From positions 58,404,001 to 58,468,000 of the forward strand of contig NC_088853.1 in the NCBI RefSeq assembly GCF_963853765.1: DNA of 64,000 nt, read 5' to 3'. Shown one piece after another: positions 1-64,000 of this stretch. The DNA is from Magallana gigas. Lineage: Eukaryota. Both the position numbers and the translations under genes were made by a program. Position 1 is the first letter of the stretch. Each line of letters opens with the position of its first letter. The notes under the pieces were generated by a model. The model did no database searches. It saw nothing but the letters and a program-made list of their open reading frames with translations, and was not told the DNA's origin.

Positions 1-672
1 AAATTCATACTACAAGGAAAGAAAATAATCTTGAGCTTATTGCAGAAAATCTAATTTTTTCATTGGTTGTTACCTTTAGCAACAGAAAAACATTTCAAAT
101 TGTTCATATTGATTGGATTTTAAATTAAGTGGGCGTATTCAATGATTCATCACATTCAAAAATATTGATTTTCCCCATGACTCTAGCAATATTTTTAAAT
201 TTTTAAGGTAATTATCAAATATGTGTGTCTTTGCAAAATCGTTTGTAGATTTATTATGTTGTTATTTCTTGAATTTTCAATATAATGTTTTGTTTTCTTT
301 TTAATTCTGTTTAATAGACTGTCTTTGCCATCGTTCAGATAATTGTTTGACAAACAGGAGATACATACCGATACTAAATGGCCTTAAATGTTTCCTCTTT
401 GATTACTTTGACCAGTTTCTTTCGGCAAACTTGTATACCATTTTTGATTTTCTCTACCATCGTTTAATTTTTCAGCTGATGAAATTGCCTTAGGCATCGA
501 AATGCTTTTTTTGTCTGAAACTTTCATACAGTTTTTGAGACGTTAAGAAATATAAACATATTTTTTATTTCTAAAATTATAATATAGTTACCAGAAAAAA
601 AAAATATATCAGCCAAAACAAAAATGCAGATATTTATTTCGTCTCATCATATAGGAAAACAGTGTTTATGTT

Positions 673-1068
673 TTACGGAACAATAAGTTCCTCCCTGAGG
701 TAGGGGTCCTTTCTCGGCGATAGTGCAGGCATAGAAAGAGTCCGGTGGCAGGAGCGGGTGGTTGCCAGTTCCTTCTTGATGGCCGCCTGCAAATGATGGA
801 GCTCCTGTGCCGCGGCCAGGGTGCGGTGGCAGGAATGGGGAGTCAGCGGCTCTTTCTTGATGGCTGTCAGGATGGCCGCTTCCAGCTCCTGTGCCGCGGA
901 CAGGGTCCGACGCCATGAATGGTCTGCCCTGATGTTGGCAACTTCGCGTGGCGCCACCGTAACCGTGTCCTGCCTCCCCCTCCTCAAGAGATACCGCAGC
1001 AGAATACTAAGACCAATCAAGCCGGCCATGACCATGGCCGAAATGGCAATGTTAAGGGCTTCGTTCAC
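673..1068 (-). CDS. Small single-pass membrane protein with three ~27-28 aa internal repeats (probably the last exon of a spliced gene)
   Basis: Hydrophobic stretch IAISAMVMAGLIGLSILL followed by RYLLRR. Repeats HSWRRTLSAAQELEAAILTAIKKE / HSCHRTLAAAQELHHLQAAIKKE / RSCHRTLS. GC-rich island in AT-rich DNA; a homolog is present at 49749-50161. Confidence 0.55.
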   Translation of the reverse strand: MNEALNIAISAMVMAGLIGLSILLRYLLRRGRQDTVTVAPREVANIRADHSWRRTLSAAQELEAAILTAIKKEPLTPHSCHRTLAAAQELHHLQAAIKKELATTRSCHRTLSMPALSPRKDPYLREELIVP

Positions 1069-1394
1069 AAAAAAATTGTAGAAAATACATTACTTCACTG
1101 TGATAAGAATGTAAATCATTTTTAGTCTTATTCAAGACCCCCATTAAAAATAAAATAAATATTAGTTCATTTCGATGAAAATGTATAATTATTCATGTCT
1201 GATTTTTCAATTTCCATCAAACGCCATACTTCATAAATAAAAATGATTTTAACTTGTAAAAGTTTTTTAGCAATAAAATTACTTGTCTAATTCCCCAACA
1301 GCTCATGCAAAAACAAAAAAAACAAAAAAAAACCACACAACTACATTCATGCTGTCATACTTTTTAAAAATGTTTTTTTATTTGTGTCATTTCA

Positions 1395-1925
1395 AACATC
1401 ATTACCTCATCGGTATCATCATTTTCACAATCACTGACGTGCTGAGTTACATGTATGTATTTTCGCCTACGATTAAAATTTCTTTTAATGATATATATAA
1501 TTAAACATATTGAAAGAGGTCCACACAATAAAATGTAAAGCAGTTGGTCGTGATTCGTACCGAGGGACTCCGATAGTGTTGATATGAGTTTGTATGTCAG
1601 CAGTGGTCTATTCCGTCAAATTTGAGGTGACAGTAAAATCATGCGAAGAGGAAGTAGCTGCAGATGGTAAAGAGACATTTGTAGTCATGTCAGGCGGAAT
1701 ATTTATGGAGTGTTTATTAAGTGAGGTGATTAGTTATACTGATTGCGTAAGCGGAGTACTTTCATGCAATGTAGCTGTGAAAACATGGGAAGTAGTAGTA
1801 GGTAACAATGCCAGGGATTCATTTTCGGACAAAGTAGTTTCATGCAGGGTGGTTGTACTATTAAATGCATAAGATTCATTGATAAGCGTGCTTCTGTTGA
1901 CTGGCTGTTCGGTTACGCAAGTCGT
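1395..1925 (-). pseudogene. Mucin-like Ser/Thr-rich ectodomain + TM + cytoplasmic tail exon (disrupted)
   Basis: The minus strand reads ESYAFNSTTTLHETTLSENESLALLPTTTSHVFTATLHESTPLTQS..., then after a frameshift DQLLYILLCGPLSICLIIYIIKRNFNRRRKYIHV...DDTDE|gtaatg. Contains stops and a frameshift. Confidence 0.6.
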
Positions 1926-2542
1926 CGATAAGTTATCGTATGACCTGAGGCGTGTTCAGCAGAGCGAGCGCTCGCGATCGGCTTTGTATGCGAACGGATC
2001 CAGTGAACTGAACGCACAGCGAGTGCTCGTTAAAATCCAAAATGGCTGACAATGTAAATATGAGTTGTTGTGAAAATTGCAATTTTCTATTATAACGTAG
2101 GTACATGTAATTGGTTATCCGGACTATATGAGCGTTTGAGGTTTCATATTTATGTGTTTTGTTTACGTTTAAGACAACAGGAAAACTACATGCAAAGAAA
2201 GTAAAGGACTTTTGAAGAAAAACCAGACTTCGACAATTGAGCCATTGTTTGTCTCGGTTAGTAAAACTCATTAAATCAATCTTAAAGTAATCAAACGTTA
2301 GGAATTTTTACTTTAAACCACTTGCATCACAAATTTTTGACCCTGAAGTACTTAAATACAATTCACCAAAAAAGGAGCAGTGAAATGAGTATTTAAAAAA
2401 TAATAAATGCTTTTTATTTGAATAAAATGATAAAAAGGAAACAGTTCTTACTAATAACCATCATAGGGAAAGGTGATAAACAATGAATTTTTGACTGACT
2501 TTGCAATGCTTGTTATCAACACATTTCAATGGTGAATTTTAG

Positions 2543-5192: not shown

Positions 5193-5420
5193 AGTAGTAT
5201 AGTAGATAACATGCAGCCACAGTCAAGGTCCCTAACCCAATGACGTCATGGGGTTAACCTGGGGTAATGACCAAGAAGAAGGTCCCACCCAATGACGTCA
5301 TCGGTTAACCACAGTCAAGAAACCCAGAGTCAAGAGAAATTCCACAGTCACAGTCGAGAAACCCTACAATCACAATTAAGAAACCCCACAGTCAAAGCCC
5401 ATTCTGATGACGTTTATAGA
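5193..5420 (+). mobile_element. Polinton/Maverick-type left terminus (variant 1)
   Basis: AGTAGTATAGTAG start; CCCAATGACGTCA at 5241 and 5293; repeated ACAGTCA motifs. Same architecture as 8404, 13261 and 57337. Confidence 0.5.
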
Positions 5421-22062: not shown

Positions 22063-24134
22063 AAAGGAATATTTTTACTTACAGAAATTCAAGGAATGCT
22101 TCTGCCATATTGTCCGGTATTTTGTCGATAATTATTCAGTTTTTAACAACCCTCCATTGATACTCTACCAGAACTGTGAACGTGACATTGGACATTTTAG
22201 AAAAAAAATAATCGCGTTTTAGATCAGAAACATTTAGGGTGTGAAAGCCCAAGAGTCAGGTACTGAGGGTGGGGTATATAGAAATTTTTTGATCAAGTTC
22301 ATTGCGTTTTAGATCAGAAAAAAAATTGGGGGGGGGGGGGGGTGTAAGCCCTAGAGTCTGGAACTGAGGGTGATAAAGTTTATTGTCTTATAGATCAGAA
22401 ACATTTGGGGTGTAAGCGCTTAGGGCCTTGCTCCCGATTGAACAATGTCAAAATTCCAGTTTAAAAACACCGCTCTATATCATGACCTACCTGCGTGGTT
22501 GGATGCGCAGAAGTAGTTTAACACGACCTGACCTTCTTATACTGAGTAGCTGTAGATTTATTCAATCTCTATATCGATCTCAAATTTCGCATTTCACACC
22601 TGCGTTAAGATTGTGTCACTTATCCCGACATGACCTAATATCAGTACTTTTATTAACGGACAATGCGTCTTTTACTACTTTGTTCAGTAATATTCCAACT
22701 TTAATAAAATTGATTATCAGAAAAACACAATTAAAATTGCATTTCGTACTTCGATCAATTAAAGGGGTGAGATAAGGTAATGTGGTTTGATCTAAATCTA
22801 CCTGAATTTGATCATTTTAACGGTGTAAAATGACTTAACAATACTTTTTCATTTAAATAAGGGAATAAGGGTGATACGTAAAGAAATTAAGGGGACACAA
22901 GTACTTTAAACCGGTATACAATACGTATATACATGTATACAAGTACAATATATGTTATGTTAGCCCACATCATATGCTCAAGTGAAATGAAAGTTAGTGC
23001 TTAATTAAAAGTGTTTTTTTTTTTATTTTAACATAGGTACATAAATATTGCAATACCTACTACGGCCTTATAATAATTCTCGTGATTGCATTTTCATACT
23101 TCACTTGAAGTGTACAATAAAATATACTTAATTCGATAAAAATCTTTATTTTAAACGAATCAACCATATACACTCTGTACCATCAATGAGGCATTCCGGA
23201 TTAATTATTGCTACCTAGTGTATGCGGGTTTCCGATAACGCCTTTATCCTGGTCAAAGGGGGTTTTAAAGACCGATCTACCGTGAAACCACACATTTATT
23301 AGAAGGTGTTCTAATTTGAACGTTTTGTATTACATCCTCATATCTAATATACTAGCCTCTTTTTTAAGTAATGTTGAGAAAATGTTAACCTCAATTTGCC
23401 CTGTACGTGTTAATAGAGGAAAAATTAACTATTTGGGCTGACGTTATTGTGTTGATTTAATTGTTGTTGTAGCTTTAGAATGGCCACTCTCTCTTGGGCG
23501 CTCCTAGCCCAAGTCTGACATTGATATAAACAATAGTGACTTTTGATATTTACATTTAAACATTGAACAAAGTTTACGAAAGATTAATGTAAATTAATTT
23601 GACTTTTGAGCATAAATCAGTCGACAGTATAGCAATAGAGGATGCTATAAATTTGTTTGTATTATCCGAGCCGTCTCGTCTACTTTGTTATCCCCCCACT
23701 TCGGCCCTCGATTTTGGTGAGCGAGAGACATAATAGAGAGTTCAAAACTCTTTTACAAACTTCAAACGTTTTAAGTAAAACACATAACTATTAACAGTTG
23801 AATTATTATTTTTAAAAAAAAAACGTTTTAACTTTATCTTAAATTTACATACAAAAAATTGAATCAACACGAAGTTGACCTCCTCCCCCCCCCCCCCCCC
23901 CCCCACTTTTATCGGACCTAAATTGAATTGATAATAAGGAAATTATCAGTGAAATTGAATTTAAAGGTATACTATTTACATGTACGACCCCCTCCCCCGG
24001 GGTAATTAAGAATTTCTGAAAGTAACTTTTTCCTTATTTTCGTTTTTTGCTTGTCAAGACTTTCTTTGCTTGTCAAGATTTTCTTGGATGAATCTGCAAC
24101 CCCCCCCCCCCCCCATTTTCAAAAACGGTCTTAC

Positions 24135-43846: not shown

Positions 43847-46800
43847 TCAAAAATGATATATTTTCCAATGTGTAAGTAAGGATTCTGCCAATTTTCTTTT
43901 TTCTTCCAGGAGAGGATTATTCTTAGTTTCTCTCTGAAATTTGCTGATGGCAATCTGTACTTTGGCTAGTGCAGCATCATAACACTTCCTGAAGCTTTTG
44001 TCATGAGGGCTGGTTTTACACAGTCTCTTGTATTTCGTGTACTCGGCCACAAGCTTCGAGTTCCCAAGTAAGGCATTCAGAACATCAGCCGTTGATTTTG
44101 GTTGATCTAAAGATTTTATTTTTAAAATAAATTTCTTGCTTAAAAATTCCTGGATCCATTAAAAAATATTTAAAATATTCCAGTGAATTACAGTAATTAC
44201 TGGTGTAAAAAAAATCTTATTACATGTATTTTTAAAATATAAATAGTAAAATAAGTGTATTTTGCTTAAGAATTGTTTTATAGAATTTTCTTGTCAAACT
44301 TTGTCCTTGTGCTTTTCCTTTATTGGTCATTTTAAATGTTTACCTTTAACTTCAATGAAAAGTCTCTTTTTGCAACTTTTCGGTTAAGGGTCTGAAACAA
44401 AGAGTTTTCAATGTCAAGTTTTGTCGGTTAAAATGGTAACTTTTGATTTTTGTTATTACAATAAACACCATTAAGCAATTTGTATCAGATACTTTACCAA
44501 ATTCAGCTACAAGCGAAGGTTTCTTTCGTGGAAAATTTTCTACCGGTAAATGTGCATCAGAATCTCTTGTGCTAATATATTCTGTAAAGATAAAACGTCA
44601 ATGAAAACTTTAAATATGGTTTTAAAAAAGAACGAAAATTTAACATAGTCCAAATAAAAAAAATAGTTGCGTTGCTGGTAACATGACAAAAACATGTAGA
44701 GTAGGTAGTTAGGCAAGAACTTTTTTTTATTTTTACTATTTATTTTAAATACATTGTCTTTTGTCAATATACATACACATATAAATAAAAACATGCAACA
44801 AAACAAATGTGAACTCTTTAAAGTACAAGAACAGACACAATCTATGATGCAGGTATGCATTTTAATAAATACTGCATGAAAAATATGCATGCGCAGAGAA
44901 GTACATTTCCAAATCCAGATGTGGAATAAAAAGTTGAAGGGTCGTGTGTAAAAATTAGGATATGTCAGGTTACAGGAAACACACTTTTTTTCTCAGCCTT
45001 ACCAATATTTTGATAATTCATTTAACACCTTGCCTTTTTTTATTGTAGCATTGAAATTGTAGGTTACCTGACTCAACGACTCCGAGTCCTCCCCTTGTCT
45101 GCAAAAAGGGTCCTGTTCTGTCACCATGTTGGCGCAAGGATCAGTTGTGTCTAGAGGTAAACATTTTATTGTTGTATTTTTCATTTGCATGGTTAGTTAA
45201 GTGCTGTTTTGTGACCATCTTCTGCACCAGTATTGATTATTTAAAAAATTGTTCTTACCTTCCTGAGCATCATGGGGGCAAGCCTCTGCCCCATTGCCAT
45301 TATTGTCATTATTGGGCTGTGTCTCTACAGCATTGTCCTGGTAATGCTGGAAACATTTTCCTGCATCATTCTTCATCTATAAAATACACATGTTTTTAAC
45401 ACTTAACACCAAGCATATAATTATTAAACAGTAAAATCAGAGAAAAGCAAACAGATTCAAGTTATTTTGTACTAAGATGACATTTAGCACCTTGCCTTTT
45501 TTTAAAATTTAACATTGAAATTGTAGGTTACCTGACTCAACGACTCCGAGTCCTCCCCTTGTCTGCAAAAAGGGTCCTGTTCTGTCACCATGTTGGCGCA
45601 AGGATCAGTTGTGTCTAGAGGTAAAACATTTTATTGTTGTATTTTTCATTTGCATGGTTAGTTAAGTGCTGTTTTGTGAACACCCTTTGCACCAGTATTG
45701 ATTATTTAAAAAATTGTTCTTACCTTCCTGAGCATCATTGGGGCAAGCCTCTGCCCCATTGCCATTATTGTCATTATTGGGATGTGTCTCTACAGCATTG
45801 TCCTGGTAATGCTGGAAACATTTTCCTGCATCATTCTTCATCTATAAAATACACATGTTTTTAACACTTAACACCAAGCATATAATTATTAAACAGTAAA
45901 ATCAGAGAAAAGCAAACAGATTCAAGTTATTTTGTACTAAGATGACATTTAGCACCTTGCCTTTTTTTAAAATTTAACATTGAAATTGTAGGTTACCTGA
46001 CTCAACGACTCCGAGTCCTCCCCTTGTCTGCAAAAAGGATCCTGTTCTGTCACCATGTTTGCGCAAGGATCAGTCGTGTTTAGAGGTAAAATTTCATTGT
46101 TCTATTTAGGCAACTAGTTACAATTTAAGTGCCACAGTTAAAGTTCAAAAACTTTACTTTTTTAATAGCAAGGAAATGTTAAGATATGTATTTACCATTT
46201 AGTGGATATATGAATTTTGCTTCCTCTTCATAGTAGACCCTGATTCTCTTGATGGGGAGTTTGAGGAGACCTTCTGCAAATTTGTCAACACATGTTTTCC
46301 AAACAGAGGCCAAAAAGGATGTTTCTCTGTGCAGATTGAAGGAGGTAAAGTTGTTAATTCGTGGACCTTCCTGTCTCCTGCAAGGCTCATCCTCACCATC
46401 ATAGAATTCAATGCCGCCTTCTACCCATGACAACTATACATCTTTTCCTGCCAACATGAAGTCCGAGATCCTTTCCAGATGGGCTTGAAACAGAACTGGA
46501 TTTTTTTTAACAAATTCATTTGAGAAAATGGTGTTGCCACGTTTCTCGAGGAGCTTGGATTGATGGCTGATCATCGAGTTTTGTTATTTTAGAGTGTCCG
46601 GTTTTGAGTTAATTTGTTGTTGAATTGTAAATCGTAGAACAGCATTGTCCACCACATATTTTGCGTGTCTGTTGGTTGTTTGTAGGGAAAGACGCCGCAG
46701 ATCCCCAAAGCTTCTTTCTTCTTGTTCCGGTATGATTGACTTCAAACAAAATATTCTGTAAGTTTCTGGGAGATGGACAGTTATCCCATGATAATGGCTT

Positions 46801-46990
46801 CCAAAAAAAATTTCGAGCTGTTAGTTTTGCTGGTTTTCCAAAGATGAGTTTTGATAGTGTTGCAAATTTAAAACATTGGTTATATAGTCTCAGGATCTGT
46901 CTCGGGTTTCTGTTTTTGAAATTGGAATATGATATTTGAATGATTTCAACTAGACTAGGAAATCTTCATGGATTTTGTTTTCTTCATATT
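43847..46990 (-). pseudogene. C-terminal part of a RAG1/Transib-like DDE transposase with spliced tail exons (5'-truncated, frameshifted)
   Basis: The minus strand ~46920-46620 reads RNPRQILRLYNQCFKF..GSHYHGITVHLPETYRIFCLKSIIPEQEERSFGDLRRLSLQTTNRH. This aligns with the RAG1 motif TNYFHKTLAHVPE..ASEGNESGNKLFRR (recalled from memory). It continues into ORF 46179..46433, the repeated exons and a last exon at 43847-44107. Confidence 0.6.
45015..46090 (-). repeat. 464-465-bp tandem duplication (~2.3 copies), each carrying two exons
   Basis: aggttacctgactcaacgactccgag recurs at 45061, 45525 and 45990. Confidence 0.95.
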
Positions 46991-47451
46991 TTGTACTGAT
47001 AAAGATTTGTTTTACGAGTGAATGCAGAAAGCTAAAAACTTATACATTACAAAGAAGTAATGTTTGGTGTTGTACCCCCCTCCCCTTCATCCCCCTTCCC
47101 CTTCCATAAATATTTCACCACCTGATAATAAGTTAGTGCGTTCTGTTTTTTCCGCAGAGGGTTCGATTGTCAGATTTTCATTAGAATAAGGGGGTCACAA
47201 CACCCTTTCATATTGAGAGCAAATAATTAATTTGCAGCCAAATAGATTATGTTATGAGTGGGTAGGGAACAATACTGCATTGTTTCAAACATTAGTAATA
47301 GGGGTATCAGAATAAACTCCTAGATCAACAAAAACGAATCAAAGTCGAATAAAATTGATATAAATAAATCGTAGGAACTTTTTCTCTTCTCTTTCCCGCA
47401 AAAAAGTTACCAAGTGGAACAGTTGAATGTTATTCACATTTTCTTTTCATA

Positions 47452-49429
47452 ATGATTGTGATAGTTATTTTACATGTATTTCTCGGGATATGTTTGTCTC
47501 AGCACACTCCACCCTGTGACTGTCTAAACGAATTAGGAATTGCCTACTGTCGCCATGTACGGGCATGTCCAGAATTTGTATCAAATGTCCAGGTGGAATG
47601 TGCGATAAATGAAATAATTTTAAAAGCAAACACGTCGCTTGACCAAGTACTGATCCACGGGGAATGTAGCAACATGTCGGTATACAAGCGATTGTGCATG
47701 TATGCAATTAAGCAAATAGTATTGCGGTCTACCAGAGAAAGTTTCCTTTGTTCAGGTAATTATATACTTAAAAAACTGAAGTGTGATTGGTGAAGCAAAA
47801 TTACTGTACTCGAGTGTTAATTTATCTGTTAAGGTGATATTTTCGACTTATTGTGTAGGTAAGTTAATTTGAAGACCTATTTTGGAAACAGTTAAGTTAT
47901 TGTATTTCAGAGTTGAATTTTATAAAATTTGCGTAAAAAAATTATAGAAATAATTTACAAAATAAAAAAAAATACAAGAAATTGGATTTCAAAAGTTTTG
48001 GAATAAAACTTTTTTTGGTCACATGACCTCTTCTTTGTTTCTCAAATCTGCGAACCTTCCTCTGTGCAATCACCCGTGTGAAGCGTGACACCGTTATCAG
48101 TCATTCCCTCATGGCGTGTTCACTGATGAACGGACGCGTGTTGTGTAAAGGTACAGAACTTTTGTTTAATCTCACAGATCATTGTAAAATTCTGTCTTTT
48201 ATGTCAAATGTTTAAACGCTTTTATGAATATCAAATCTCTGATGCAAATGAAGTGGAAAATTAAACTTTATCTGTAGATTTGACCACGACGATGAAACCG
48301 GGCTGTTGGAAATCACCAGCGAGAAGCGTGAGTAATCTCTTCTTTTTGTCACTGTATCTTCTTTTTTATTAATACCTTTAATTGGGCGATTTGGTTTTAG
48401 ATTTCTGTTAAAGTTTTCGTGGGAAAACTAACATTGTATTACAGGGTTTTTTCCCACGCGTTCGATCGTTTCGATCGAGCGCGCACACAAACAGGGTAAA
48501 AATGAAATATTTTTTTTTAGAGATTGAAAAAGAAAAGAAATAAAAACAATTATGGACAACTTTTTATTGTTGATGTTGTGAATACACTCCTCTGTTCGTG
48601 TGAGTGGAGAAGAGTGCAATTGATTATTATCGAACATGCGCGGATCTGAAAGGGAGTGGGGTGGGTCCCGACCAACCACCCCCCCCCCCCTTTCTATTTG
48701 GAAAATAAAAAATTATTATATTAATATGGTAAAATTATTGCATATATGCCTCGGACCCCCCACCCCCGGCTAACAATTATCCTTCGGAACCACCCCCCCC
48801 CCCCACACCCCTTTTGGAAAAAAAAAAATTCTGGATCCGCGCATGCCAGAATCCATTTTTTATTTTGCAAATTAAAATGTGATTTTTTTTCCCCTTAAAT
48901 TTAGATTTTACACTCGGAAGGGGTTCGTCACGGACATACAACAACTTTTCAACCACTGACGTAACCGAACAGCATGCTAACAGAAGCACACTTATTAATG
49001 AATCTTATGCATTTAATAGTACACCAATCCCGTATGAAACTACTTCGCCCGAAAATGAATCCCTGGCATTGTCTCCTATAACTACTGCTAATGTTTTAAC
49101 AGCGACTATGCATGACAGTACTCCGCTTACGCAATCAGTAAAACAGACCACCCCCCTTATTAAACACTCCACAAATAACAACAAATGCCTCTTTACCAAA
49201 TGCAGCTACTTTCTCTTTGCATCATTTTACTGTCACCTCAAATTTGACGGACTTGACGACTGCTGACATACAAACTCGTATAACCACCATCGGAACGAAA
49301 AACACTGAGTCCTTCGGTACGAATCACGACCAACTGCTTTACATTTTATTTTGTGTACCTCTTTTGATATTTGCATGTTTTATTATATATATTATTAAAA
49401 GAAATTTTAATCGTAGGCGAAAACACTAA
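47452..49429 (+). pseudogene. Type I membrane glycoprotein: signal peptide, Cys-rich domain, mucin-like stalk, TM, basic tail (frameshifted)
   Basis: MIVIVILHVFLGICLSQHTPPCDCLNELG.. with a donor tcag|gtaatt at ~47756; a small exon at ~48278-48330 ending gc|gtgagt; a Thr/Ser-rich exon at ~48920-49429 ending LLYILFCVPLLIFACFIIYIIKRNFNRRRKH*. Several N-x-S/T sites are present. Confidence 0.6.
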
Positions 49430-49748
49430 CATGTAACTCAGCACGTCAGTGATTGGGAAAATGATGATACCGATGAAGAATTTTTTTTGCATGAGCTGTG
49501 CATGGAAATTAGACAAGTAAGTAATTTTATTGCTAAAAACCTTTTACAAGTTAAAAATTATTTTAATTTCATGAAGGATGACGTTTGATGAAAATTTAAA
49601 AATCAGTCATGAATAATTATACATTTTCATCGAAATGAACTAATATTTTTTATGTAATTTTTAATGGGGGTCATTGATATGACTTAAAATGATTTACATT
49701 CTTATCACAGTGAAGAAATGTATTTTTTACAATTTTTTAGTTTTTTAC

Positions 49749-50161
49749 AAGCCTTCAGTATTGCCATTACGGCCATGATCATGGCCGGCTTGATCGGCCT
49801 TAGCATTCTGCTGCGGTATCTCCTGAGGAGATACCGCAACTACATTTTGCGGAGGGGGGGGGGGGGCAGGACACCCTTACGGCGGCGCCACGTGAAGTTG
49901 CCAGGGCAGACCATTCATGCCGCCGGACCCTGGCCGCTGCACAGAAGCTGGAAGCGGCCCCCTGACAACCATTAAGAAAGAGCCGCGGTGACCCCCCATT
50001 CCTGCCACTGCACCCTGGCCGCGGTACAGGAACTCCACCACGTGCAGGCGGCCATCAAAAAGGAACCGGTATCCCCCTGCTCCTGCCGCTGGACTCTGTC
50101 CATGCCGGTGATCTCTCCGAGGAGGGACCCCTACCTCAGGGACGAGCTGATTGCCTTGTAA
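49749..50161 (+). pseudogene. Frameshifted paralog of the small TM/repeat protein at 673-1068
   Basis: AFSIAITAMIMAGLIGLSILLRYLLRR.., then frameshifts, with the same repeats (..QELHHVQAAIKKEP..RDPYLRDELIAL*). Confidence 0.65.
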
Positions 50162-50544
50162 TCTTAATCATCTGATTAAACCCGATAACAAAACTTTTAA
50201 ACTTGCTTGGTGTTTTTTCCCCACTGTTTTCCTATATGATGAGACGAAAGAAATATCTGCATTTGTTTTTGGCTGATTTCTTTCTTTCTTTCTTTTTTTT
50301 GGTAACTATATTATAATTTTAGAAATAAAAAAAAAATGTTTATATTTCTTAACGTCTCAAAAACTGTAATGAGAGTTTCAAGCAAAACCAAAAAGAAGAT
50401 GCCTGAGGCAATTTGATCAGCTGAAAAATGAAACGATGGTTGAGAAAATCAAAAATAGTATGCAAGTTTGTCTAAAACATTTAAGACCATTTAGTATCGG
50501 TATTTATCTCCTGTTTGTCAAACAATTATCTGAACGACGTAAAG

Positions 50545-53500
50545 ATGCAACATCGATGCAGATATCATTAAAAAAATCTATAGTGGTGATAAAAAATACC
50601 GATAATCTATGTCTGTTAAGAGCTGCTCTTGTGGCTTTCTGCAGTGCTTGTAGAACGAGCAACGACGAATACAGGAGATTGAAAAATTTGCATTCTACTC
50701 TCACCCCAGCCGAAATTCTCATTCAGTTTGAGAAATGCCCACAGTGGTACTATAGACAAGTGTGTCAAAATACTGATCAAAAGCAGGACACCCTCACTCG
50801 GTCTGTGTGTTATTCATTGGCCATTTCGAAAGACCAACCGTTAACGTACTCATTGATCCCAAAATTAGAGGATTATTTCAATGTAAACATTGACGTAATA
50901 AGCTCTGCTTTGAGTAACGCATTTTCATACATCAGTCAAAACTGCGATGAGGAAAGAAAAAAAATATTTTTATACCACATAGACAGGGACCTGGGACACT
51001 TTCATGCCATTGTTAAAATATGTGGCTTTTTTTAAGTTCGTATTTCTGTTCTTCGTGTCTGACCCCGTATGATCATAAACATAAACATGCTTGTAAGAAT
51101 CATTGCAGCGTTTGTTTGTCGGATGATTGTGAAAACCAGCAGGTTTGGATTTGTCAAGATTGACACCGAACTTGCAGATCTGCGGAGTGTTACAAAAGGC
51201 ATAAAATGCGTACCGAAAGCGGTAGAGTACCATGCGAGCTAGTATACAAATGTCCGACCTGTCACAAAATCGTGGAACAATGCGAGATGAAGCCTGAGGA
51301 TCACAAGTGCGGGTACTTTACGTGTAAATCTTGCCTTCAGTATGTAGAACCGGAACATCTCTGTTACGCGAGAAGCTACCCCCCTTCCGACAACGGAACG
51401 CGACGCTACATTTTTGCCGATATAGAGGCATCGCAGAGGGATGAAATAGTGCAGTGTGAATGGGGATATGCCCCTCGCCTTGACACAAACTGCGCTCAAT
51501 GTATTCAAGAGGAAAAGACCTGTTTGGATTGCCGTCGATGTCAGCATTGTCTCCAGTCTTACTGCGGAAAATCAAGGCATTCTGTTGTCTTAGCCGTCTG
51601 TCAGTCCGCCTGTACAAAGTGCGAAAACAATGACATGACTCCAGAGAGCACATGCAATGAATGCGGAGATCGGTGCAATCGTTGTGCTAAAAGAGATAAA
51701 AAGACCAAACGATATATCAGAACCCCCTGTCCCGGAGAGTGTGGATTCCGAGAGCGCGTGTTTAAGACTCTGTACGACTTGGGTAGATGGATATTCCACG
51801 AAAACCACAGAGGGTATACGGTCGTTTTTCACAATCTGTCATACGATGTTCAATTTCTACTTCAGTACCTCATATCGCAGACTATACGACATTCCTTTAT
51901 TATCTACAGCGGTAGTAAAGTGCAAATGTTTAACGTGAATGCTTTACAGATCAGAGAGATTGATTCATTTCATTTTTTACCCATGGCCCTGGCAAAATTA
52001 CCTGGAGCATTCCAACTGGAATCATTAGCCAAAGTATATTTCCCGCACTTCTTTACGTGTCGGGAAAATTTATCATACGTGGGGCCGTATCCCCCGCCTG
52101 AGACTTACGGGTTCGATGACATGTCAATCGAAGGGCGGGAAAAATTCTACGAGTGGTATCGGGAAAAAATTGACAGCGGAGAAGTGTTTGATATTCATAG
52201 CGTAAAAGGTGAAATACTGTCGAAGCGACGTCGATATACTGCGGCGAGCCTGTATAAAATTCAAACACCTCCTACACGAAGCGACTAGCAGAGACGGAGG
52301 TCGCGCCATTGACGCATTTGACTCCTGTACCATAGCATCTCTTTGCATGGAAGTTTACAAGCAAAAATTTCTTGAAGAGCAGTGGCGATTAATCGTCAAG
52401 GAAAACGACCAAGAGATCCGGATAGATGCTAAAAAAATAAACGGAAAAACATCTGTCCTCTATCAGTTTAGATAGACTTGAACGAATTTAAGAAAATGAA
52501 CATGGAAATAATCAAGGAAGTTTTCGTGAAGTCCCCCATTGCTCGTCCACCGCCGAACGGATATCAGGTTTGTATACCATTCAGCAGAAAATCCATAGCA
52601 TGGCTCTAATTGTTAATGCAGCGCGCCCGCACAAACGGTCAACACCTGGATATTTGCCATGCATTAAACGGAAGAGGGGAGTACCGAGTACCGGAAACTC
52701 GTTATCGACTAGATGGTTACGTAGCACCTACCACCGAATTTCCCGCCGGAATTGCTTATGAATTTCACGGCTGTCGTTTTCACGGATGTCCTGCGTGCTT
52801 CAAAAACGGAGGTGATATTTTACTTCCAAACTCCGAGTATACTGCATCCGAGTTGCTTGCACGGACCCGTAATAAAGAAAGAAAGTTAAAGAGTCTGGGA
52901 ATGAAACTTGTCGTCATCTGGGAACACGAATATGACACCGTGATTAAGGAGGACCCTGACGCCAAAACCTTTGTCGAAAACCTGGAATTGACTGAGCGTC
53001 TAGACCCCCGGGATAGTCTTATGGGTGGACGTACAAACGGATGTGTGTTGTACAAAAGAGCGCCACGAGATACAAAAATACGTCGATTTTACCTCGCTGT
53101 ACCCTTTCGTTAACAAGACGGCACGATATCCGACCGGACATCCCGAGATCATCACTCGTGAGTTTGACGATATCTCAAAATATTTCGGACTGGCAAAGGT
53201 AAAAGTTCTCCCGCCTCGAGGACTTTTTCACCCAGTGCTCGGTTACCGCTCGCGGGGAAAGTTAACTTTTCCGTATGTCGATCGTGTGTGGAGCGCCAAC
53301 AGAAAGAACCTTGCGCTTGTTCGGACGCGGACAGAGCATTGACGGGTACTTACTATACACCCGAACTTCTCAAAGCCGTTGAAAAGGGGTACACGATCCT
53401 CAAAATCTACGAAGTCTACCATTGGAGCGAATCAACTCAGTTCGACTCTGTAACCAAGACGGGTGGACTATTTGCGCCTTATATCAACATGTTTTTGAAA

Positions 53501-54369
53501 ATTAAACAAGAGGCCAGTGGACGACCCGACTGGATCAAGACGGAGGATGACTTTGCTCAATATATCGAGATGTACGAGCAGAGAGAAGGTTTTCGTCTAG
53601 ACTCCGACAATATTGAGCACAATCCGGTCTACGTAGCCTGGCAAAGCTTCTATTGAATAGTTTCTGGGGTAAATTTGGACAGAGAATGAACATCTGCAAA
53701 ACGCAGATTCTTCACGACAGCCAAGCTCACGTGTTGTTTGAGCAGATGGCCAATCCAACTATAGAAATTCAGGATTTTAATATCATAGACGACAACCATC
53801 TCATGCTGTCTACTAAACGTACCTCGGAGGACATGTGCGACCCCAGTCACAGCAATGTTTTTTTTGGCTTCATTTACTACCTGTTGGGCCCGCCTTAAGT
53901 TGTACGAAATATTAGATTTGTTGCAAACCCGCGTTTTGTACTGGAACACAGACTCGGTAATCTATACCCAAAAGGAAGGGGAAATAGAATTTCCCATTGG
54001 TGATTATCTGGGTGAACTTACAAACGAATTGAAAAAGGACGACTGGATTATCGAGTTTGTGTGCAATGGTCCTAAAATTATGCATACAGAACCCATAAAG
54101 GAAAGGAGGTATGCAAAGTCAAGGGATTTTCCCTAAATTACATCAATTCGACAATCCTTAATTTAAACAGCATGAAAGACGCCATGTTCCATCGCGAGAA
54201 TTCATTGGCGGGAAACTACTGCACAGTAGTCGTCCACAATCCCAACAATATCAGTCGAGAAAAAATTCATTGCGAACTTTATTGCCAAGAGGAAATTAAG
54301 AAATATGCATCTGTGTATACGAAACGAGTTGTGCAACCAAATTTGACAACACTTCCTTATGGTTATTAA
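50545..54369 (+). pseudogene. Protein-primed family-B DNA polymerase (Polinton/Maverick/adintovirus type) with Vsr-like nuclease insert; ~8 frameshifts
   Basis: IKNTDNLCLLRA; ExoI YIFADIE; ExoII HNLSYD; ExoIII YCRSDV; insert YRLDGY..AYEFHGCRFHGCP..VIWEHE; GGRTN; motif A DFTSLYP; motif B KLLLNSFWGKFGQ; motif C YWNTDS; C-terminal KRV..TLPYGY*. Confidence 0.93.
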
Positions 54370-54704
54370 AACAATATCTCATGTATTAGAATGATTGTTT
54401 ATTAGTATATGCACACTTAAAAATACATATTTTGAACATTTTTAACAAAATAAAATGATATGTGTTCACAATGTATTTTTTTTCTCATTTTTATAGTTTT
54501 TTTCGTTTACAGATAATAATGAATAAACACTCCCACCCTTTACAATTATAATATCAGCCACATTGTCCTTTTCTTTTTGGGTGAGAGTATGCCAGGAGGT
54601 GAAGTCGCTTTTCTCTTTTTGCTTCCCGCGTAAATAAGACCGGATCCAGATTGTGGAAGGGGGCGTTTTAATTGTCGACAATGTCTCCTCGGTGTTTACA
54701 ATTA

Positions 54705-57336: not shown

Positions 57337-57560
57337 AGTAGTAGGGTATATACTGTGCAGTCACTTTAGAGTCAAGATGACGTCATGGGGATTCCCAGGT
57401 CCCACCCACACAGGTCATAATTGAGGTCACAATCCAGGTGTGACTCTACAGTCAGGGTGTTCTCTACAGTCAGGGGTGTCTTTACAGTCAAGGGCGACTC
57501 TACAGTCAAGAGGGACCCTACAGTCAGTGTCACTTCGGGGTCACATCTGAATCACAGACA
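57337..57560 (+). mobile_element. Polinton/Maverick-type left terminus (variant 3)
   Basis: AGTAGTAGGG..GCAGTCACT..AGTCAAGATGACGTCATGGG, with TGACGTCA 41 bp from the start, AGGTCA half-sites and repeated (CT)ACAGTCA. Confidence 0.65.
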
Positions 57561-59305: not shown

Positions 59306-59546
59306 ATGGCAGACGGCAGGTGTTCGGTCGCCTGTATATCTAGTGTAGTTAAAACAGACTGCAACGTATCTTCAAGATATCGAAATGACTGTGAAGTGAG
59401 GAGGTTGAGTGACTGTAACAGGCCCATTTTCAACCATTTGCGTCAGTTTTCTATTAACAGCGCCGACATTACAAGTGAAGGGCAATTGATTGCATTTCGA
59501 TGCGGGCTGTTCGACACAGATCTTAGCTCATTCACCGTGTGCCCAT
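59306..59546 (+). pseudogene. Cys-rich N-terminus of a probable transposase-like protein, interrupted by the Gypsy LTR
   Basis: caaATGGCAG start; MADGRCSVAC..C..LSDC..HL..SEGQLIAFRCGLF..FTVCP, cut exactly at the LTR edge. The family is unresolved. Confidence 0.4.
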
Positions 59547-59782
59547 TGAAGAATATAACGAATTAAATCAATTCACGAATAGGTTTATTCATGACACATG
59601 TATACAAGTCCACATCATGCTCTCACGCACGCACACATCATCAGCATGGCTATTTTCCCGTGCTCAATCCCCGGATGATACTCTCAAACAATACACACAA
59701 AGAACCATAACTCTTACTCACATCATACTCATACATTCATACTCAAACAGTTACTTCCCTTAGATCATATAAATATACTACA
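59547..59782 (-). mobile_element. 3' LTR of the Gypsy element
   Basis: Minus strand: polypurine tract AAAGGGGGG (59786-59794), then TGTAGTA...CTTCA, with AATAAA near its end (59584-59589). The left edge cannot be confirmed against the 5' LTR, which is outside the window. Confidence 0.7.
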
Positions 59783-60015
59783 ATACCCCCCTTTGCAAGA
59801 TTTAACTATTATACTGAAAAACATATTAATAATCAGATTTCTCATTCTTAATAAGATTACTGTCCCTTATTTCTGAAAAACATTCACAATTTTTTACATT
59901 TAGTAATGAGTCACAGTTCACAGTCCATTATAAAGAGTTTACAAAATTTACAAAGACAGTCACAGTTCACAGTCCATGATACAAATAATTTCACACGGAA
60001 ACACACGGACACGGC

Positions 60016-63000
60016 TCACATTTTAAAGTCCTTAAAACGTTGCGGAACTGTCTTTACACGGGTTGACCTTCTCAAGACTGGCTCTGTTGGTTTTCTTGCG
60101 ATAGGTTCCCTCACAGAAGGCCGTCCTTCATCACCTGTATCAGCTGATACAATGATCGGTTCACTGTAAGTCTCTGGAATATCGGACACATCACTTTCGG
60201 AAGTTCCCGGTTCTTGATACTTTTTCACAAACTCGCTATTCCTCTTCAATGTGACTCCTTCTGGTGATTCAACAACACAGCTGTTTCCAGTTTTCTGTAC
60301 CAAAGTATATGGCTCTGCATGGTACGGAGTGTCCATTTTGTCTTTGACTGCTTTCTTCAAAAGGACTGAATCTCCAGGCTCTAAGTCGCAATCCACTGCA
60401 CCACGTTTCTCATCAACATATAGCTTGTTTCTGTACTTTGAATACACATCCTTATCTCGCATTTCTTCATCAAACACATTTTCTTGTAGATTCTCTACTT
60501 GTGGTAATTTTGTCCTCAGTTTACGGCGGAACATCAATTCTGCAGGTGACACCCCAGTTGTACTGTGTGGAGTTGTTCGATATGCAAACAAGTATTTCCG
60601 GATTTCTTTCTTCCAATCCTTAGATTCTGCTTGTGCAATTCTAATCCTTTTCATCAATGACCGGTTTTGACGTTCAACTTCCCCGTTTGCAGCCGGATGT
60701 AATGGTGTAACTGCTCTGTGTTTGATGCAGTTATCTGTCAAATAATCCTCAAATAACTTAGACTTGAATTGTGGTCCATTATCAGATGTAATTTGATATG
60801 GAATTCCGTGTCTACAAAACATTCCCTCTAGAGCATCAATGATTTTCTCACTTGTAATGTCTTTGGTAATTTCAATTTCATAATAACGGCTGAAGTAGTC
60901 CACTACAACTAACACATATTGTCCTGATGTTAATGGTCCCAGTAAGTCAATTGCCAACTCTTGCCACGGTCCCGTCGGTAAAGGTGTTGGACTGATTGGC
61001 TCCGGTTTTGGATATGCACTAGTAATCTGACATCCATGACATGATTTCACGTACTTTTCCACTTCTTTGTCCATACCAGGCCACCAAACTTTCGTCCTAA
61101 GTTGTTGTTTTGTCCCAACAATGCCCAAGTGCCCCTGGTGTGCTAACTGAACACACTGTTTTCTCAGACTTCTCGGAATCACAATCCTAGATCCACGTAA
61201 CACAAGGTATCCAATAGAACAAAATTCATCTCTGAATGGAAAATAGTCAACACAAGATTTTTCCCATTCCCCTTCTTTAATGAATCTACAAAATCTGACA
61301 AGTTCTTCGTCCCTCTTTGAAACTTCTTCTACTTCTCGAGTAGACAATGCATGAGGCGTAGCTTCCCTCGCTATAAATTTCACATATTGTTCAGTCTCCA
61401 CAGAGTTACTGTTTTCCACAGGTTTGTTTTCCACTAAACGTGACAATGCATCTGCAATATTCTGATGTCCAGGTAAGTAACGCACTTTGAAATTGTATGC
61501 CATAAGTTTCAACAACCAGCGTTCAATTCGTGCATTTGGTCGAGATTTTCTTCCATAAAGAACTTCTAATGGCTTGTGATCTGTAATCAGCTCAAACTCT
61601 ACACCATACAAGTAAATATGGAACTTCTCACATGCCCACACAACTGCCAGAGCTTCTTTCTCTGTTGTCGAATAATTGCGTTCTGCCACGGACAATGTAC
61701 GGCTTGCATAACAGATGACTCTCGTTTCACCTTTGTGCACTTGAAGTAAGACTGCTCCAAGGCCTACATTGCTAGCATCTGTCACTAACTGTGTTTTTTC
61801 TGCATCTAACCTGTAGTGTCCTAAAGTTTCCACATTTGACAAACAACGTTTCAACGTATCAAAACTCTTCTTCTGTTCATGTCCCCATACGAAGTTCACA
61901 TTCTTCTTTGTCAATCTCCTCAGCGGTTCTGACACAGTCGCTAGGTTTGGTATATATCGTGCACTAAAGTTTACAAGTCCAAGGAAACTTTTCACTTCAG
62001 ATCCACTTGTTGGCTCTTTTGCATCCAGTAATGACTTGATCCTGTCACTTGTTGGCCCAATACCATTCTTAGACATCACATGACCCATGAATGTTATTTT
62101 GTTCATGCTAAATTCACACTTTGCTTGGTTCAGCGTAAGTCCTTTTTCTTTAATTCTCTGCAATGCTTTACGAAGTCTTTTATCATGTTCTGCTTTGTCA
62201 CGCCCATGGATCACAATATCATCTGAAATGTTTTGTACTCCCTCACAATCATGAAATACTTGTGAAATCACTTGCTGATATTTTTCTGGTGCTGATGAAA
62301 TACCAAACATCAGTCTTTTATATCTATACAGGCCTTTGTATGTTACAAATGTAGTGATCTCCCTTGAAGATTCCTCCAACTCAATCTGATGGTATCCACT
62401 TCTAAGGTCCAACTTGCTAAACACTTCACTACCATTCACATTGTAGAGTATTTCTTCCACAGTCGGAATAGGGTGTCTTTCACGAATAATCGCAGCATTG
62501 GCTTGTCTCATGTCGACACACAATCTGATGTCACCATTGGATTTCGGTACAATAATGACTGGACTGACCCAAGGTGTAGGAGAATTCACTTTCTCAATGA
62601 TATCCTGAGATTCAAGGTCATCAAGTTGCTCTCCAACTTTCTCTCTCAAACTGTATGGAATCCTGTACATAGCTTGGGCAACAGGTTTTACGTCCTGATC
62701 AATATGCAGCTTTAACTTAAAGTTTTTCAGCTTTCCTATTCCTTGGAAACACTCTGGGTATTCACGAACAATGTCAAATGATTGTACACTGTTGACACCA
62801 AGTTTAAGAACTCCTAGATTCGTAGCGGTATCTTTGCCTAGCAGTGCTGGTCCTTTTCCATTCAACACATAGAATTCTTCTTCACTACCATTGCCTGTTT
62901 CCTCGATCAAGGTATGTGTTCGAAATTTTCCTAACAATTTCAGTGGTTCTGTAGAACTATATGCATAGAGTTTCTTCTCACACTTTTCAGAATAACATTT

Positions 63001-63999
63001 TAGGCGTTTCTTCTTGAGAACTTCCCACAGTTCTTTGTCTATAATATTGGCTGATGCACCACTATCAATAACGAATTCCACTGGATGTCCTCCAAGACTG
63101 ACCGTAACTTTGTCTGATGACTTGTCCGATGTCTTCAGAATAAATGCAAACACATCTGAATCAGATTCCGACTCTACTGTATGAATCTGTCCTCCTCTCT
63201 GAGATTTCTGTGCCATACGTTTTCCTTGTTTTGGCTTCGTTAAGCAGCAGCTCATGAAGTGTCCCACATTTCCACATTTCCTGCATTCCTTATCTTTTGC
63301 CGGACATGATGGATCTCTGGCTAAGTGTCCTTCTCGTCCACAACGAAAACACTTATTTCCATACTTTCTGTTCTCGAATCTACCAGTACGTCTTGGTTTC
63401 TCTGTTTTAGGCCCACGTCCATGAATTTTATTTATTGATGCCACTAATTCGGTATCCATATGTCTTGCCTGTGCCTCTGTCATTTCAAATGTCGCAGCTA
63501 TTGTCCTCAACTGTTCCAGTGTTAAGTCTTTTCCTTTCTCTAACAACTTAGCTCTGATTTTATGAGACATGCACTTTTCAATCACCTGATCCCGAATTTG
63601 CTCATCCTGATTTGCAAAATCACAATATACTGCTTGCTGTCTAAGTTTCGTTATAAACTGTTCTACAGTTTCTTTATCACTTTGTGTTATCTTACGAAAT
63701 ACGTACTGTTCATATGGAACATTCACTTTGTTTTCAAAATGTTTATTTAACGTTTTGACAGCCACGGTATACACACTATCTTCTTGCTCTGCACGGACTT
63801 CATTCAGCGTATAATAAATATCCTGAACTTCTGGTCCTGCACAATGTAACAGTAAAGCTTTTCTTTGTTCAGGGTTACTCACCCCCTTTCCAACCGCAAA
63901 AAGTTCGAAACTTCTATGCCACCGTTTCCAAGACTGATTTAACTGTGACGGTTCTGCGTTTGGGTCGAACTTCTGAACACCATTCAGTTCAATAAGCGA
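60016..63999 (-). CDS. Ty3/Gypsy LTR retrotransposon single-ORF gag-pol polyprotein (5' end beyond the window), apparently intact
   Basis: Open from the window edge (SLIELNGVQKFDP..). Gag with a CCHC knuckle CFRCGREGHLARDPSC, protease FVIDSGAS, RT (LCVDMR, ISDDIVI), RNase H (TDASNVGLGAVL, TDHKPL), integrase HHCC (AHQGH..CHGC) and D,D-35-E core (IDLLG, SDNG, NGEVER). The order PR-RT-RH-IN is Gypsy. Confidence 0.97.
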   Translation of the reverse strand, partial: SLIELNGVQKFDPNAEPSQLNQSWKRWHRSFELFAVGKGVSNPEQRKALLLHCAGPEVQDIYYTLNEVRAEQEDSVYTVAVKTLNKHFENKVNVPYEQYVFRKITQSDKETVEQFITKLRQQAVYCDFANQDEQIRDQVIEKCMSHKIRAKLLEKGKDLTLEQLRTIAATFEMTEAQARHMDTELVASINKIHGRGPKTEKPRRTGRFENRKYGNKCFRCGREGHLARDPSCPAKDKECRKCGNVGHFMSCCLTKPKQGKRMAQKSQRGGQIHTVESESDSDVFAFILKTSDKSSDKVTVSLGGHPVEFVIDSGASANIIDKELWEVLKKKRLKCYSEKCEKKLYAYSSTEPLKLLGKFRTHTLIEETGNGSEEEFYVLNGKGPALLGKDTATNLGVLKLGVNSVQSFDIVREYPECFQGIGKLKNFKLKLHIDQDVKPVAQAMYRIPYSLREKVGEQLDDLESQDIIEKVNSPTPWVSPVIIVPKSNGDIRLCVDMRQANAAIIRERHPIPTVEEILYNVNGSEVFSKLDLRSGYHQIELEESSREITTFVTYKGLYRYKRLMFGISSAPEKYQQVISQVFHDCEGVQNISDDIVIHGRDKAEHDKRLRKALQRIKEKGLTLNQAKCEFSMNKITFMGHVMSKNGIGPTSDRIKSLLDAKEPTSGSEVKSFLGLVNFSARYIPNLATVSEPLRRLTKKNVNFVWGHEQKKSFDTLKRCLSNVETLGHYRLDAEKTQLVTDASNVGLGAVLLQVHKGETRVICYASRTLSVAERNYSTTEKEALAVVWACEKFHIYLYGVEFELITDHKPLEVLYGRKSRPNARIERWLLKLMAYNFKVRYLPGHQNIADALSRLVENKPVENSNSVETEQYVKFIAREATPHALSTREVEEVSKRDEELVRFCRFIKEGEWEKSCVDYFPFRDEFCSIGYLVLRGSRIVIPRSLRKQCVQLAHQGHLGIVGTKQQLRTKVWWPGMDKEVEKYVKSCHGCQITSAYPKPEPISPTPLPTGPWQELAIDLLGPLTSGQYVLVVVDYFSRYYEIEITKDITSEKIIDALEGMFCRHGIPYQITSDNGPQFKSKLFEDYLTDNCIKHRAVTPLHPAANGEVERQNRSLMKRIRIAQAESKDWKKEIRKYLFAYRTTPHSTTGVSPAELMFRRKLRTKLPQVENLQENVFDEEMRDKDVYSKYRNKLYVDEKRGAVDCDLEPGDSVLLKKAVKDKMDTPYHAEPYTLVQKTGNSCVVESPEGVTLKRNSEFVKKYQEPGTSESDVSDIPETYSEPIIVSADTGDEGRPSVREPIARKPTEPVLRRSTRVKTVPQRFKDFKM

Positions 64000-64000
64000 A

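Follow-up and report, generated by a model that had tools for sequence, protein, structure and literature searches.

How did four Polinton-type ends, each carrying the CRE palindrome TGACGTCA, come to lie in one short stretch of oyster DNA, all facing the same way and none with a partner? The sequence-only reading saw in them a conserved origin architecture, with the CRE at a fixed 40 to 41 bp, and either one-ended derivatives or repeated, oriented insertion into one element family. We consider it probable that the four ends are partnerless, duplicated relics of one lineage of Polintons, which would once have had two ends, and that they combine an inherited CRE offset and putative promoter-type CREs with a location on a Polinton-dense chromosome.

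Ends, copies and flanks in the window

The window (the whole 64-kb stretch analysed here, C1:58404001-58468000) lies on C1, the largest chromosome (76.1 of 564.0 Mb, 13.5%). Four places in it match AGTAG-N30-45-TGACGTCA (six pattern matches), every one on the plus strand, where 100 shuffles lead to an expectation of 0. All four ends start AGTAGTA and thus show the (AGT)2 end motif of Polintons, and CAGTCA repeats follow each of them, as described earlier. The failure to see a right end by eye is borne out by a pattern scan of both strands, which finds no reverse-facing end in the window; its two TACTACT motifs, at 11766 and 22673, are paralogous internal positions, not right ends. The features discussed below are these:

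1..1945, minus strand: reverse piece of the arm of a different Polinton lineage (that of 45887..54370), 77-82% inverted match to 48932-50537
5193..5420, plus strand: orphan Polinton-type terminus, divergent variant, with AGTAGTA at 5193, a CAGTCA-like box at offset 21 and CAGTCA repeats
5241-5248 (offset 48) and 5293-5300 (offset 100), plus strand: CREs of the 5193 end
8404..12635, plus strand: truncated polymerase-side Polinton arm, copy 1, with terminus at 8404 and CREs at offsets 41 and 136
about 9231-9808: small inverted-repeat element inserted in copy 1
12643..13260, plus strand: host flank of the 13261 junction, inside the tandem unit; duplication breakpoint at about 12636-12643
13261..23819, plus strand: truncated polymerase-side Polinton arm, copy 2, with terminus at 13261 and CREs at offsets 41 and 144
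about 13986-15486, 16654-17867 and 18188-22062: three later insertions splitting copy 2
45887..54370, plus strand: relic of a different Polinton lineage, a gene-poor arm and a broken polymerase gene (Pfam PF03175)
57337..57530, plus strand: orphan Polinton terminus, third variant, with a CRE at offset 41 and CAGTCA repeats

Three of the four offsets first reported stand: the CRE lies at 41 from termini 8404, 13261 and 57337. The fourth, 40 from 5201, had been counted from an internal AGTAG. Since ends of this family start AGTAGTA and have CAGTCA at offset 21, the terminus is at 5193 and its CRE at 48 (47 in the duplicate at C1:56445528). The box at offset 21 reads CAGCCA in the 5193 end and CAGTCA in that duplicate, a segmental one with the flank in common, which is the sole other copy of this end. 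No blastn match connects the 5193 end to the paired ends of the family, so its assignment rests on motif register, which suggests that it belongs to the same lineage as the other window ends. A second CRE is indeed confined to some variants (at 5293, 8540 and 13405), with none up to 300 bp past 57337. The window holds 13 copies of TGACGTCA against 0.71 expected; seven sit in the four ends and six in inserted or repeated elements, so that CRE richness here is not peculiar to Polintons.

The picture of four same-facing, unpaired CRE ends is accurate, but they are not four independent local events, the arms at 8404 and 13261 being copies of one unit, 94-99% identical when compared block by block. 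The label of left ends suits these two, which carry the polymerase-side arm, and the ends at 5193 and 57337 come without an arm assignment. Copy 1 is 72-76% identical to TSD-paired elements over about 570 bp and 74-82% identical across 4 kb to an element ending near C1:4815844, and copy 2 extends to 23819 when aligned to other copies. The tandem breakpoint is not at the terminus but about 620 bp upstream, which indicates ordinary tandem duplication; the same unit also forms a three-copy array at C1:61.547-61.555 Mb (period about 4.16 kb), where the breakpoint is likewise off the terminus. One of the insertions in copy 2 contains an array of about 166-bp repeats (18487-20542), which we take to resemble the oyster 166-bp satellite.

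The outer flank of each window end is common to one to four other places on C1. The left flank of 8404 recurs at C1:56437531 (92%, 1110 bp) and that of 13261 at C1:54785184, 61547052, 61551209 and 61555372; the outer flanks of 5193 and 8404 match an inverted block at C1 56.44 Mb. The 57337 end, 71-85% identical to family ends across 60-170 bp, is duplicated together with its flanks at C1:60973809 (97%), the flank match at 60.97 Mb. Crossover mapping of the 8404 copy against its two donors gave mixed informative sites with no clean switch, and none of 53 ends proved to be a partner of, or to share a TSD with, any of the four junctions in the window.

The window also contains Polinton DNA of another lineage. 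Its protein-primed polymerase (about 50550-54370) is broken by several stops and frameshifts and is about 40% identical to the polymerases of the paired lineages. The relic at 45887..54370 is duplicated at C1:55.47-55.48 Mb (94-95%), the piece at 1..1945 also matches C1:55.474-55.479 Mb, and a search for ends of this lineage found none. As far as shown, the relic is the body of none of the four ends. Because DNA of this other lineage occurs in both orientations (1..1945 on the minus strand, 45887..54370 on the plus strand), the window as a whole contains Polinton DNA facing both ways. A Gypsy-type LTR retrotransposon occupies 59530-64000+ on the minus strand, and its start is repeated at C1:58468018 (97%, 253 bp).

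The Polinton/Maverick lineage and its relatives

Across the genome, AGTAGT-N33-37-TGACGTCA has 37 matches on the forward strand and 34 on the reverse, compared with 22 and 12 for the reversed control. Among the 71 matches, 41 were judged by eye to be family ends (39 on C1, 2 on C9), and the other 30 were set aside as chance, the control total being 34. Two regular tandem arrays also emerged: at C4:35.059-35.066 Mb, AGTAGTA...TGACGTCA matches of identical sequence recur three times at 3.4-kb intervals, and the array at C6:20.265-20.327 Mb has about 16.4-kb spacing and CAGTCA-type repeats like those in the ends.

The identification of the ends as Polinton termini is confirmed by pairing, for copies identical or related to them face each other across Polinton genes. 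The ends of the lineage pair as inverted repeats 12.8-33.6 kb apart, in line with the 13-25 kb or more between Polinton TIRs, with an exact 6-bp target duplication (TSD) in five of nine pairs and without one in four; 6-bp TSDs are also present in a sister lineage and in one split insertion (see below). The paired elements enclose a protein-primed family B polymerase (pPolB, PF03175), an rve integrase (PF00665) with a C-terminal chromodomain (PF00385), an ATPase (Pox_A32 match, E=4e-4, under the cut-off) and an adenain-like protease (Peptidase_C48/C5, E=2e-4 and 4e-4), the latter two conserved across lineages. A capsid candidate has no Pfam match; its Atlas look-alikes at 0.98-0.99 have PF21738 (DJR-like) in 15-30% of members. 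The lineage of the window ends is Polinton/Maverick, and relic ends are themselves an ordinary feature of this known transposon class. The accessible parts of PMC8097293 and PMC10748475 give (AGT)2 ends and 6-bp TSDs as standard for Mavericks, (AGT)2 being the commonest end motif listed in the former, and the text available from PMC10294476 already records Polintons in molluscs.

Several other elements were noted. An AGCAGC-ended close relative (C1:63453639-63478177 and 18089568; L085-L087, L082) has CACTCA at offset 21 and TGACCT repeats where the CRE would be. TGCTGC...GCAGCA-ended Polintons with 6-bp TSDs lie at C1:40227443-40248486 (L079-L081), 58012852-58033909 (L291-L292) and 71671655-71692053 (L237-L239); 5'-TG...CA-3' ends resemble retroviral ends. 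Short TSD-bearing elements of 10-11.5 kb (C3:47775069-47786524 and C4:39980699-39990695) carry polymerase, integrase and ATPase, and queries with the capsid and the protease matched nothing in them. In three lineages, the product of the gene next to the integrase-side end joins a CARD (caspase recruitment) domain to two PC4 domains; in a fourth it has PC4 only. The CARD domain is possibly a captured host domain, and a literature search found nothing on it. The CARD/PC4 gene lies at:

L228:4436-5422
L087:4817-5830
L038:3134-4174
L045:1890-2405

An integrase tree, poorly resolved and with long branches, was used only to confirm divergence. In viral contigs, at least 120 stretches match the end pattern, nearly all far from contig ends, and these were treated as chance.

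Crowding on the largest chromosome

PF03175 matches collapse to at least 58 loci, of which 48 (83%) are on C1 and 27 of those within 52-66 Mb; this count is a lower bound, with 91 of 124 candidates scored and the window's own broken polymerase not among them. In the controls, C1 holds 54 of 150 scored Helitron matches (36%; 252 candidates) and 33 of 150 scored Gypsy matches (22%; 1480 candidates), making the Polinton excess significant against both (Fisher, p=1e-9 and p=1e-15). Duplicated loci inflate the C1 count, and distinct TSD-bearing insertions were therefore counted instead: at least 9 of 17 are on C1 (27 of its 48 loci examined; p=1e-4).

Does the integrase aim for C1? A chromodomain matched in all 11 integrase ORFs scanned, one of them below the Pfam cut-off, and its best structural relatives are CBX7, Polycomb and HP1. 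By alignment to CBX7, the 11 integrase tails have aromatic residues at all three positions that we take to form the aromatic cage. Since every integrase checked carries a chromodomain with three aromatic cage residues, chromatin-guided insertion is plausible, and the pile-up may thus reflect targeting, with the chromodomain reading methylated histone H3 in silent chromatin of C1. The share of polymerase loci on C1, compared with the two controls, and the surplus of TSD-bearing insertions there also favor this reading, which we nevertheless regard as tentative and clearly less likely than not to be the cause. Chromodomains are also found in lineages whose TSD-bearing copies are mostly off C1; chromodomain state does not tell C1-biased lineages from spread ones, all having the domain. 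C1 is enriched for other elements too. The available part of 10.1101/2025.06.24.661118 reports the largest Pacific oyster chromosome, which by its size C1 appears to be, as the most repeat-rich, duplication-rich and aneuploidy-prone. Moreover, paired ends with a TSD were found at 8 of 10 loci off C1 and at 9 of 27 on C1 (p=0.02), a comparison in which some C1 element ends may fall beyond the DNA examined for pairing; fewer TSD-paired copies on C1 suggest that retention of relics also contributes. Local hopping may be a source as well, and the present data do not distinguish among targeting, local hopping and weak purging.

An effect of the integrase chromodomain on site choice was noted as possible in the accessible portion of Starrett et al. 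(PMC8502044), and we found no published test of such steering in Polintons. With 83% of polymerase loci on 13.5% of the DNA, as opposed to 36% and 22% for the controls, it becomes directly testable. Our literature search, with subscription papers, supplements and Repbase outside it, found no published description of a one-chromosome Polinton pile-up in oysters or of CRE sites in Polinton ends.

CRE spacing, orientation and comparison with known systems

Among 53 ends of the lineage, the CRE lies at offset 41 in 36, 39 in six, 40 in four, 37 in three, 44 in two, and 47 and 48 in one each; these ends came from patterns demanding a CRE-like site, so that ends without a CRE are outside the count. 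Paired ends of other lineages were found without a motif filter. We compared nine lineages, whose identity to the window lineage falls from 89% to 32% in the capsid candidate and from 78% to 40% in the integrase. The first CRE is at 39-41, 37, 72, 86 and 94 in five of them, a sixth has TGACGTAA at 40, and three, including a close relative, have none in the first 300 bp. A CRE is thus an end feature in part, as proposed: exact TGACGTCA occurs in the first 100 bp of five of the nine lineages, where about 1.4% is expected per 100 bp, and a CRE within 100 bp occurs in three of five broader groups (p=2e-5), but its position varies between lineages and three lack it. The fixed spacing of 40-41 bp does not survive, given a range of 37-48 within the lineage and 72, 86, 94 or no CRE elsewhere, including in a relative with 78% capsid identity. 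Because the position differs between lineages, the spacing is a lineage trait; the modal offset of 41 was probably inherited from a common ancestor, with drift over the range 37-48. Stricter landmarks than the CRE are the AGTAGTA tip and the CAGTCA box at offset 21.

By analogy with adenovirus ITRs, the CREs are likely to be recognised by host bZIP proteins of the ATF/CREB type and to belong to a terminal promoter or enhancer, a likelier role than that of a ruler-spaced part of a replication origin. Their recurrence in the unalignable ends of five lineages hints at how such elements may become active. For one paired element of the lineage, poly(A) reads (about 1% of each of two raw-read runs from one study, plus two contig runs) give low, mostly sense-strand depth across the gene cassette, not enough to locate a start. 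We think it improbable that the origin includes the CRE at about 40 bp as a spaced element, where a bound bZIP factor would guide the terminal protein-polymerase complex into place, much as NFI and Oct-1 do in adenovirus. The modal offset of 41, the CRE at 37 in a sister lineage, the TGACGTAA found 40 bp into the ends of a distant lineage (its capsid identity is 52%) and the enhancement of replication by host-factor sites in adenovirus ITRs (PMC5717082) would fit such a role, but the 37-48 range exceeds one helical turn, six of the nine lineages, one of them closely related, either have the CRE at 72-94 or lack it, and further CREs lie deeper in the ends at variable places. The host-factor site is therefore not kept at the set distance that a conserved origin architecture implied: among the eight other lineages, five have it at 37, 40 (as a variant), 72, 86 and 94, and three have none. 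The same portion of PMC5717082 places NFI and NFIII/Oct-1 in the replication-enhancing set of the adenovirus ITR and ATF, with Sp1, apart from it in the transcription-related set.

Orientation calls for less explanation than first supposed. The chance of a common facing is 0.125 for four ends and 0.25 for three independent ones, and the family ends on C1 are 21 plus and 18 minus (p=0.75), so the strand bias looked for among genome-scan ends is absent. Nine consecutive plus ends run from C1 58.41 to 61.55 Mb, and known duplicates explain only part of this run. The flanks of 30 loci, searched for a shared target or self-nesting, yielded only duplicated blocks and common repeats. One same-facing pair can be traced to its origin. 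The plus ends at C1:63190430 and 65075188 carry complementary 6-bp flanks, and their flanking DNA abuts, with an overlap of exactly 6 bp, on two empty copies of the target repeat:

C4:5524533-5524538: empty site of the split insertion
C3:26156506-26156511: empty site of the split insertion

The exact overlap identifies them as the two ends of one insertion, now same-facing and 1.9 Mb apart, with one arm cut after 631 bp; an inversion probably split it. This puts Polintons at the breakpoints of large rearrangements. The element at C1 65.08-65.10 Mb has two ends that come from different insertions.

That the ends are one-ended derivatives, or repeated insertions in one orientation into their own family, is very unlikely: four ends in 64 kb face one way with none back, head-to-tail units exist at C1 61.55 Mb and more same-facing clusters at C1 58.615-58.724 and 62.605-62.611 Mb, but such facing arises readily by chance, the tandem breakpoint misses the terminus, no Polinton target is common to the flanks of 30 loci, and one same-facing pair is a single split insertion. 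Oriented insertion into one family is thus set aside, the window ends being duplicates of four old junctions. Taken together, the variable CRE offset, the lack of strand bias and the shared flanks mean that the fixed-origin and oriented-insertion readings fail and that the window ends are duplicated relics.

On this account of duplicated relics, each window junction likely began as a two-ended, integrase-mediated insertion with a 6-bp target duplication, as shown for relatives. The copies would then have multiplied by tandem and segmental duplication, and later deletions and inversions probably removed or flipped their partners. Polintons are dense in the part of the largest chromosome that contains the window; new insertions would be over-represented there and old copies kept and rearranged. 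A broader and more speculative proposal, which we consider clearly less likely than not, is that integrase chromodomains direct oyster Polintons, from several lineages, into the silent chromatin of one chromosome, both nursery and graveyard; that elements are split, blocks of megabase size inverted and ends duplicated when crowded copies recombine, which would help to make the chromosome structurally unstable; and that the ends independently keep host CREs that would tie their waking to cAMP or stress signals. An oyster chromosome of this kind is reported (10.1101/2025.06.24.661118) as the most repeat-rich and the most often lost in somatic cells.

The lineage resembles animal Polintons/Mavericks of the Alpha 'adintovirus' type, as far as described in the accessible text of PMC8097293 and PMC8502044, in its (AGT)2 termini, TIRs and 6-bp TSD. 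Its PF03175 polymerase, its rve integrase bearing a chromodomain, its packaging ATPase and its adenain-like protease are shared with Polintons/Mavericks, and the DJR-like capsid candidate may be as well. Most oyster copies are degraded, as vertebrate Mavericks are (PMC8097293), and in contrast to intact Polintons, what the window retains of the lineage is limited to orphan ends and truncated arms. Neighbouring oyster lineages end AGCAGC or TGCTGC, neither of which is among the three vertebrate Maverick end types given in that portion of PMC8097293. As in the adenovirus ITR (PMC5717082, available text), host transcription-factor sites including ATF lie near a protein-primed end; in contrast to it, the position of the oyster CRE varies among lineages, and the comparison rests on the CRE, not on NFI/Oct-1 sites.

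Heterochromatin targeting is known among retrotransposons. The integrase of chromoviruses (chromodomain Gypsy elements) likewise bears a chromodomain, which has been proposed to direct where they insert. The crowding on C1 recalls zebrafish 4q, where young elements are concentrated on one chromosome arm, according to the accessible part of PMC9341512. Unlike both, the oyster element is a Polinton, with putative targeting and a bias much stronger than that of two control element types.
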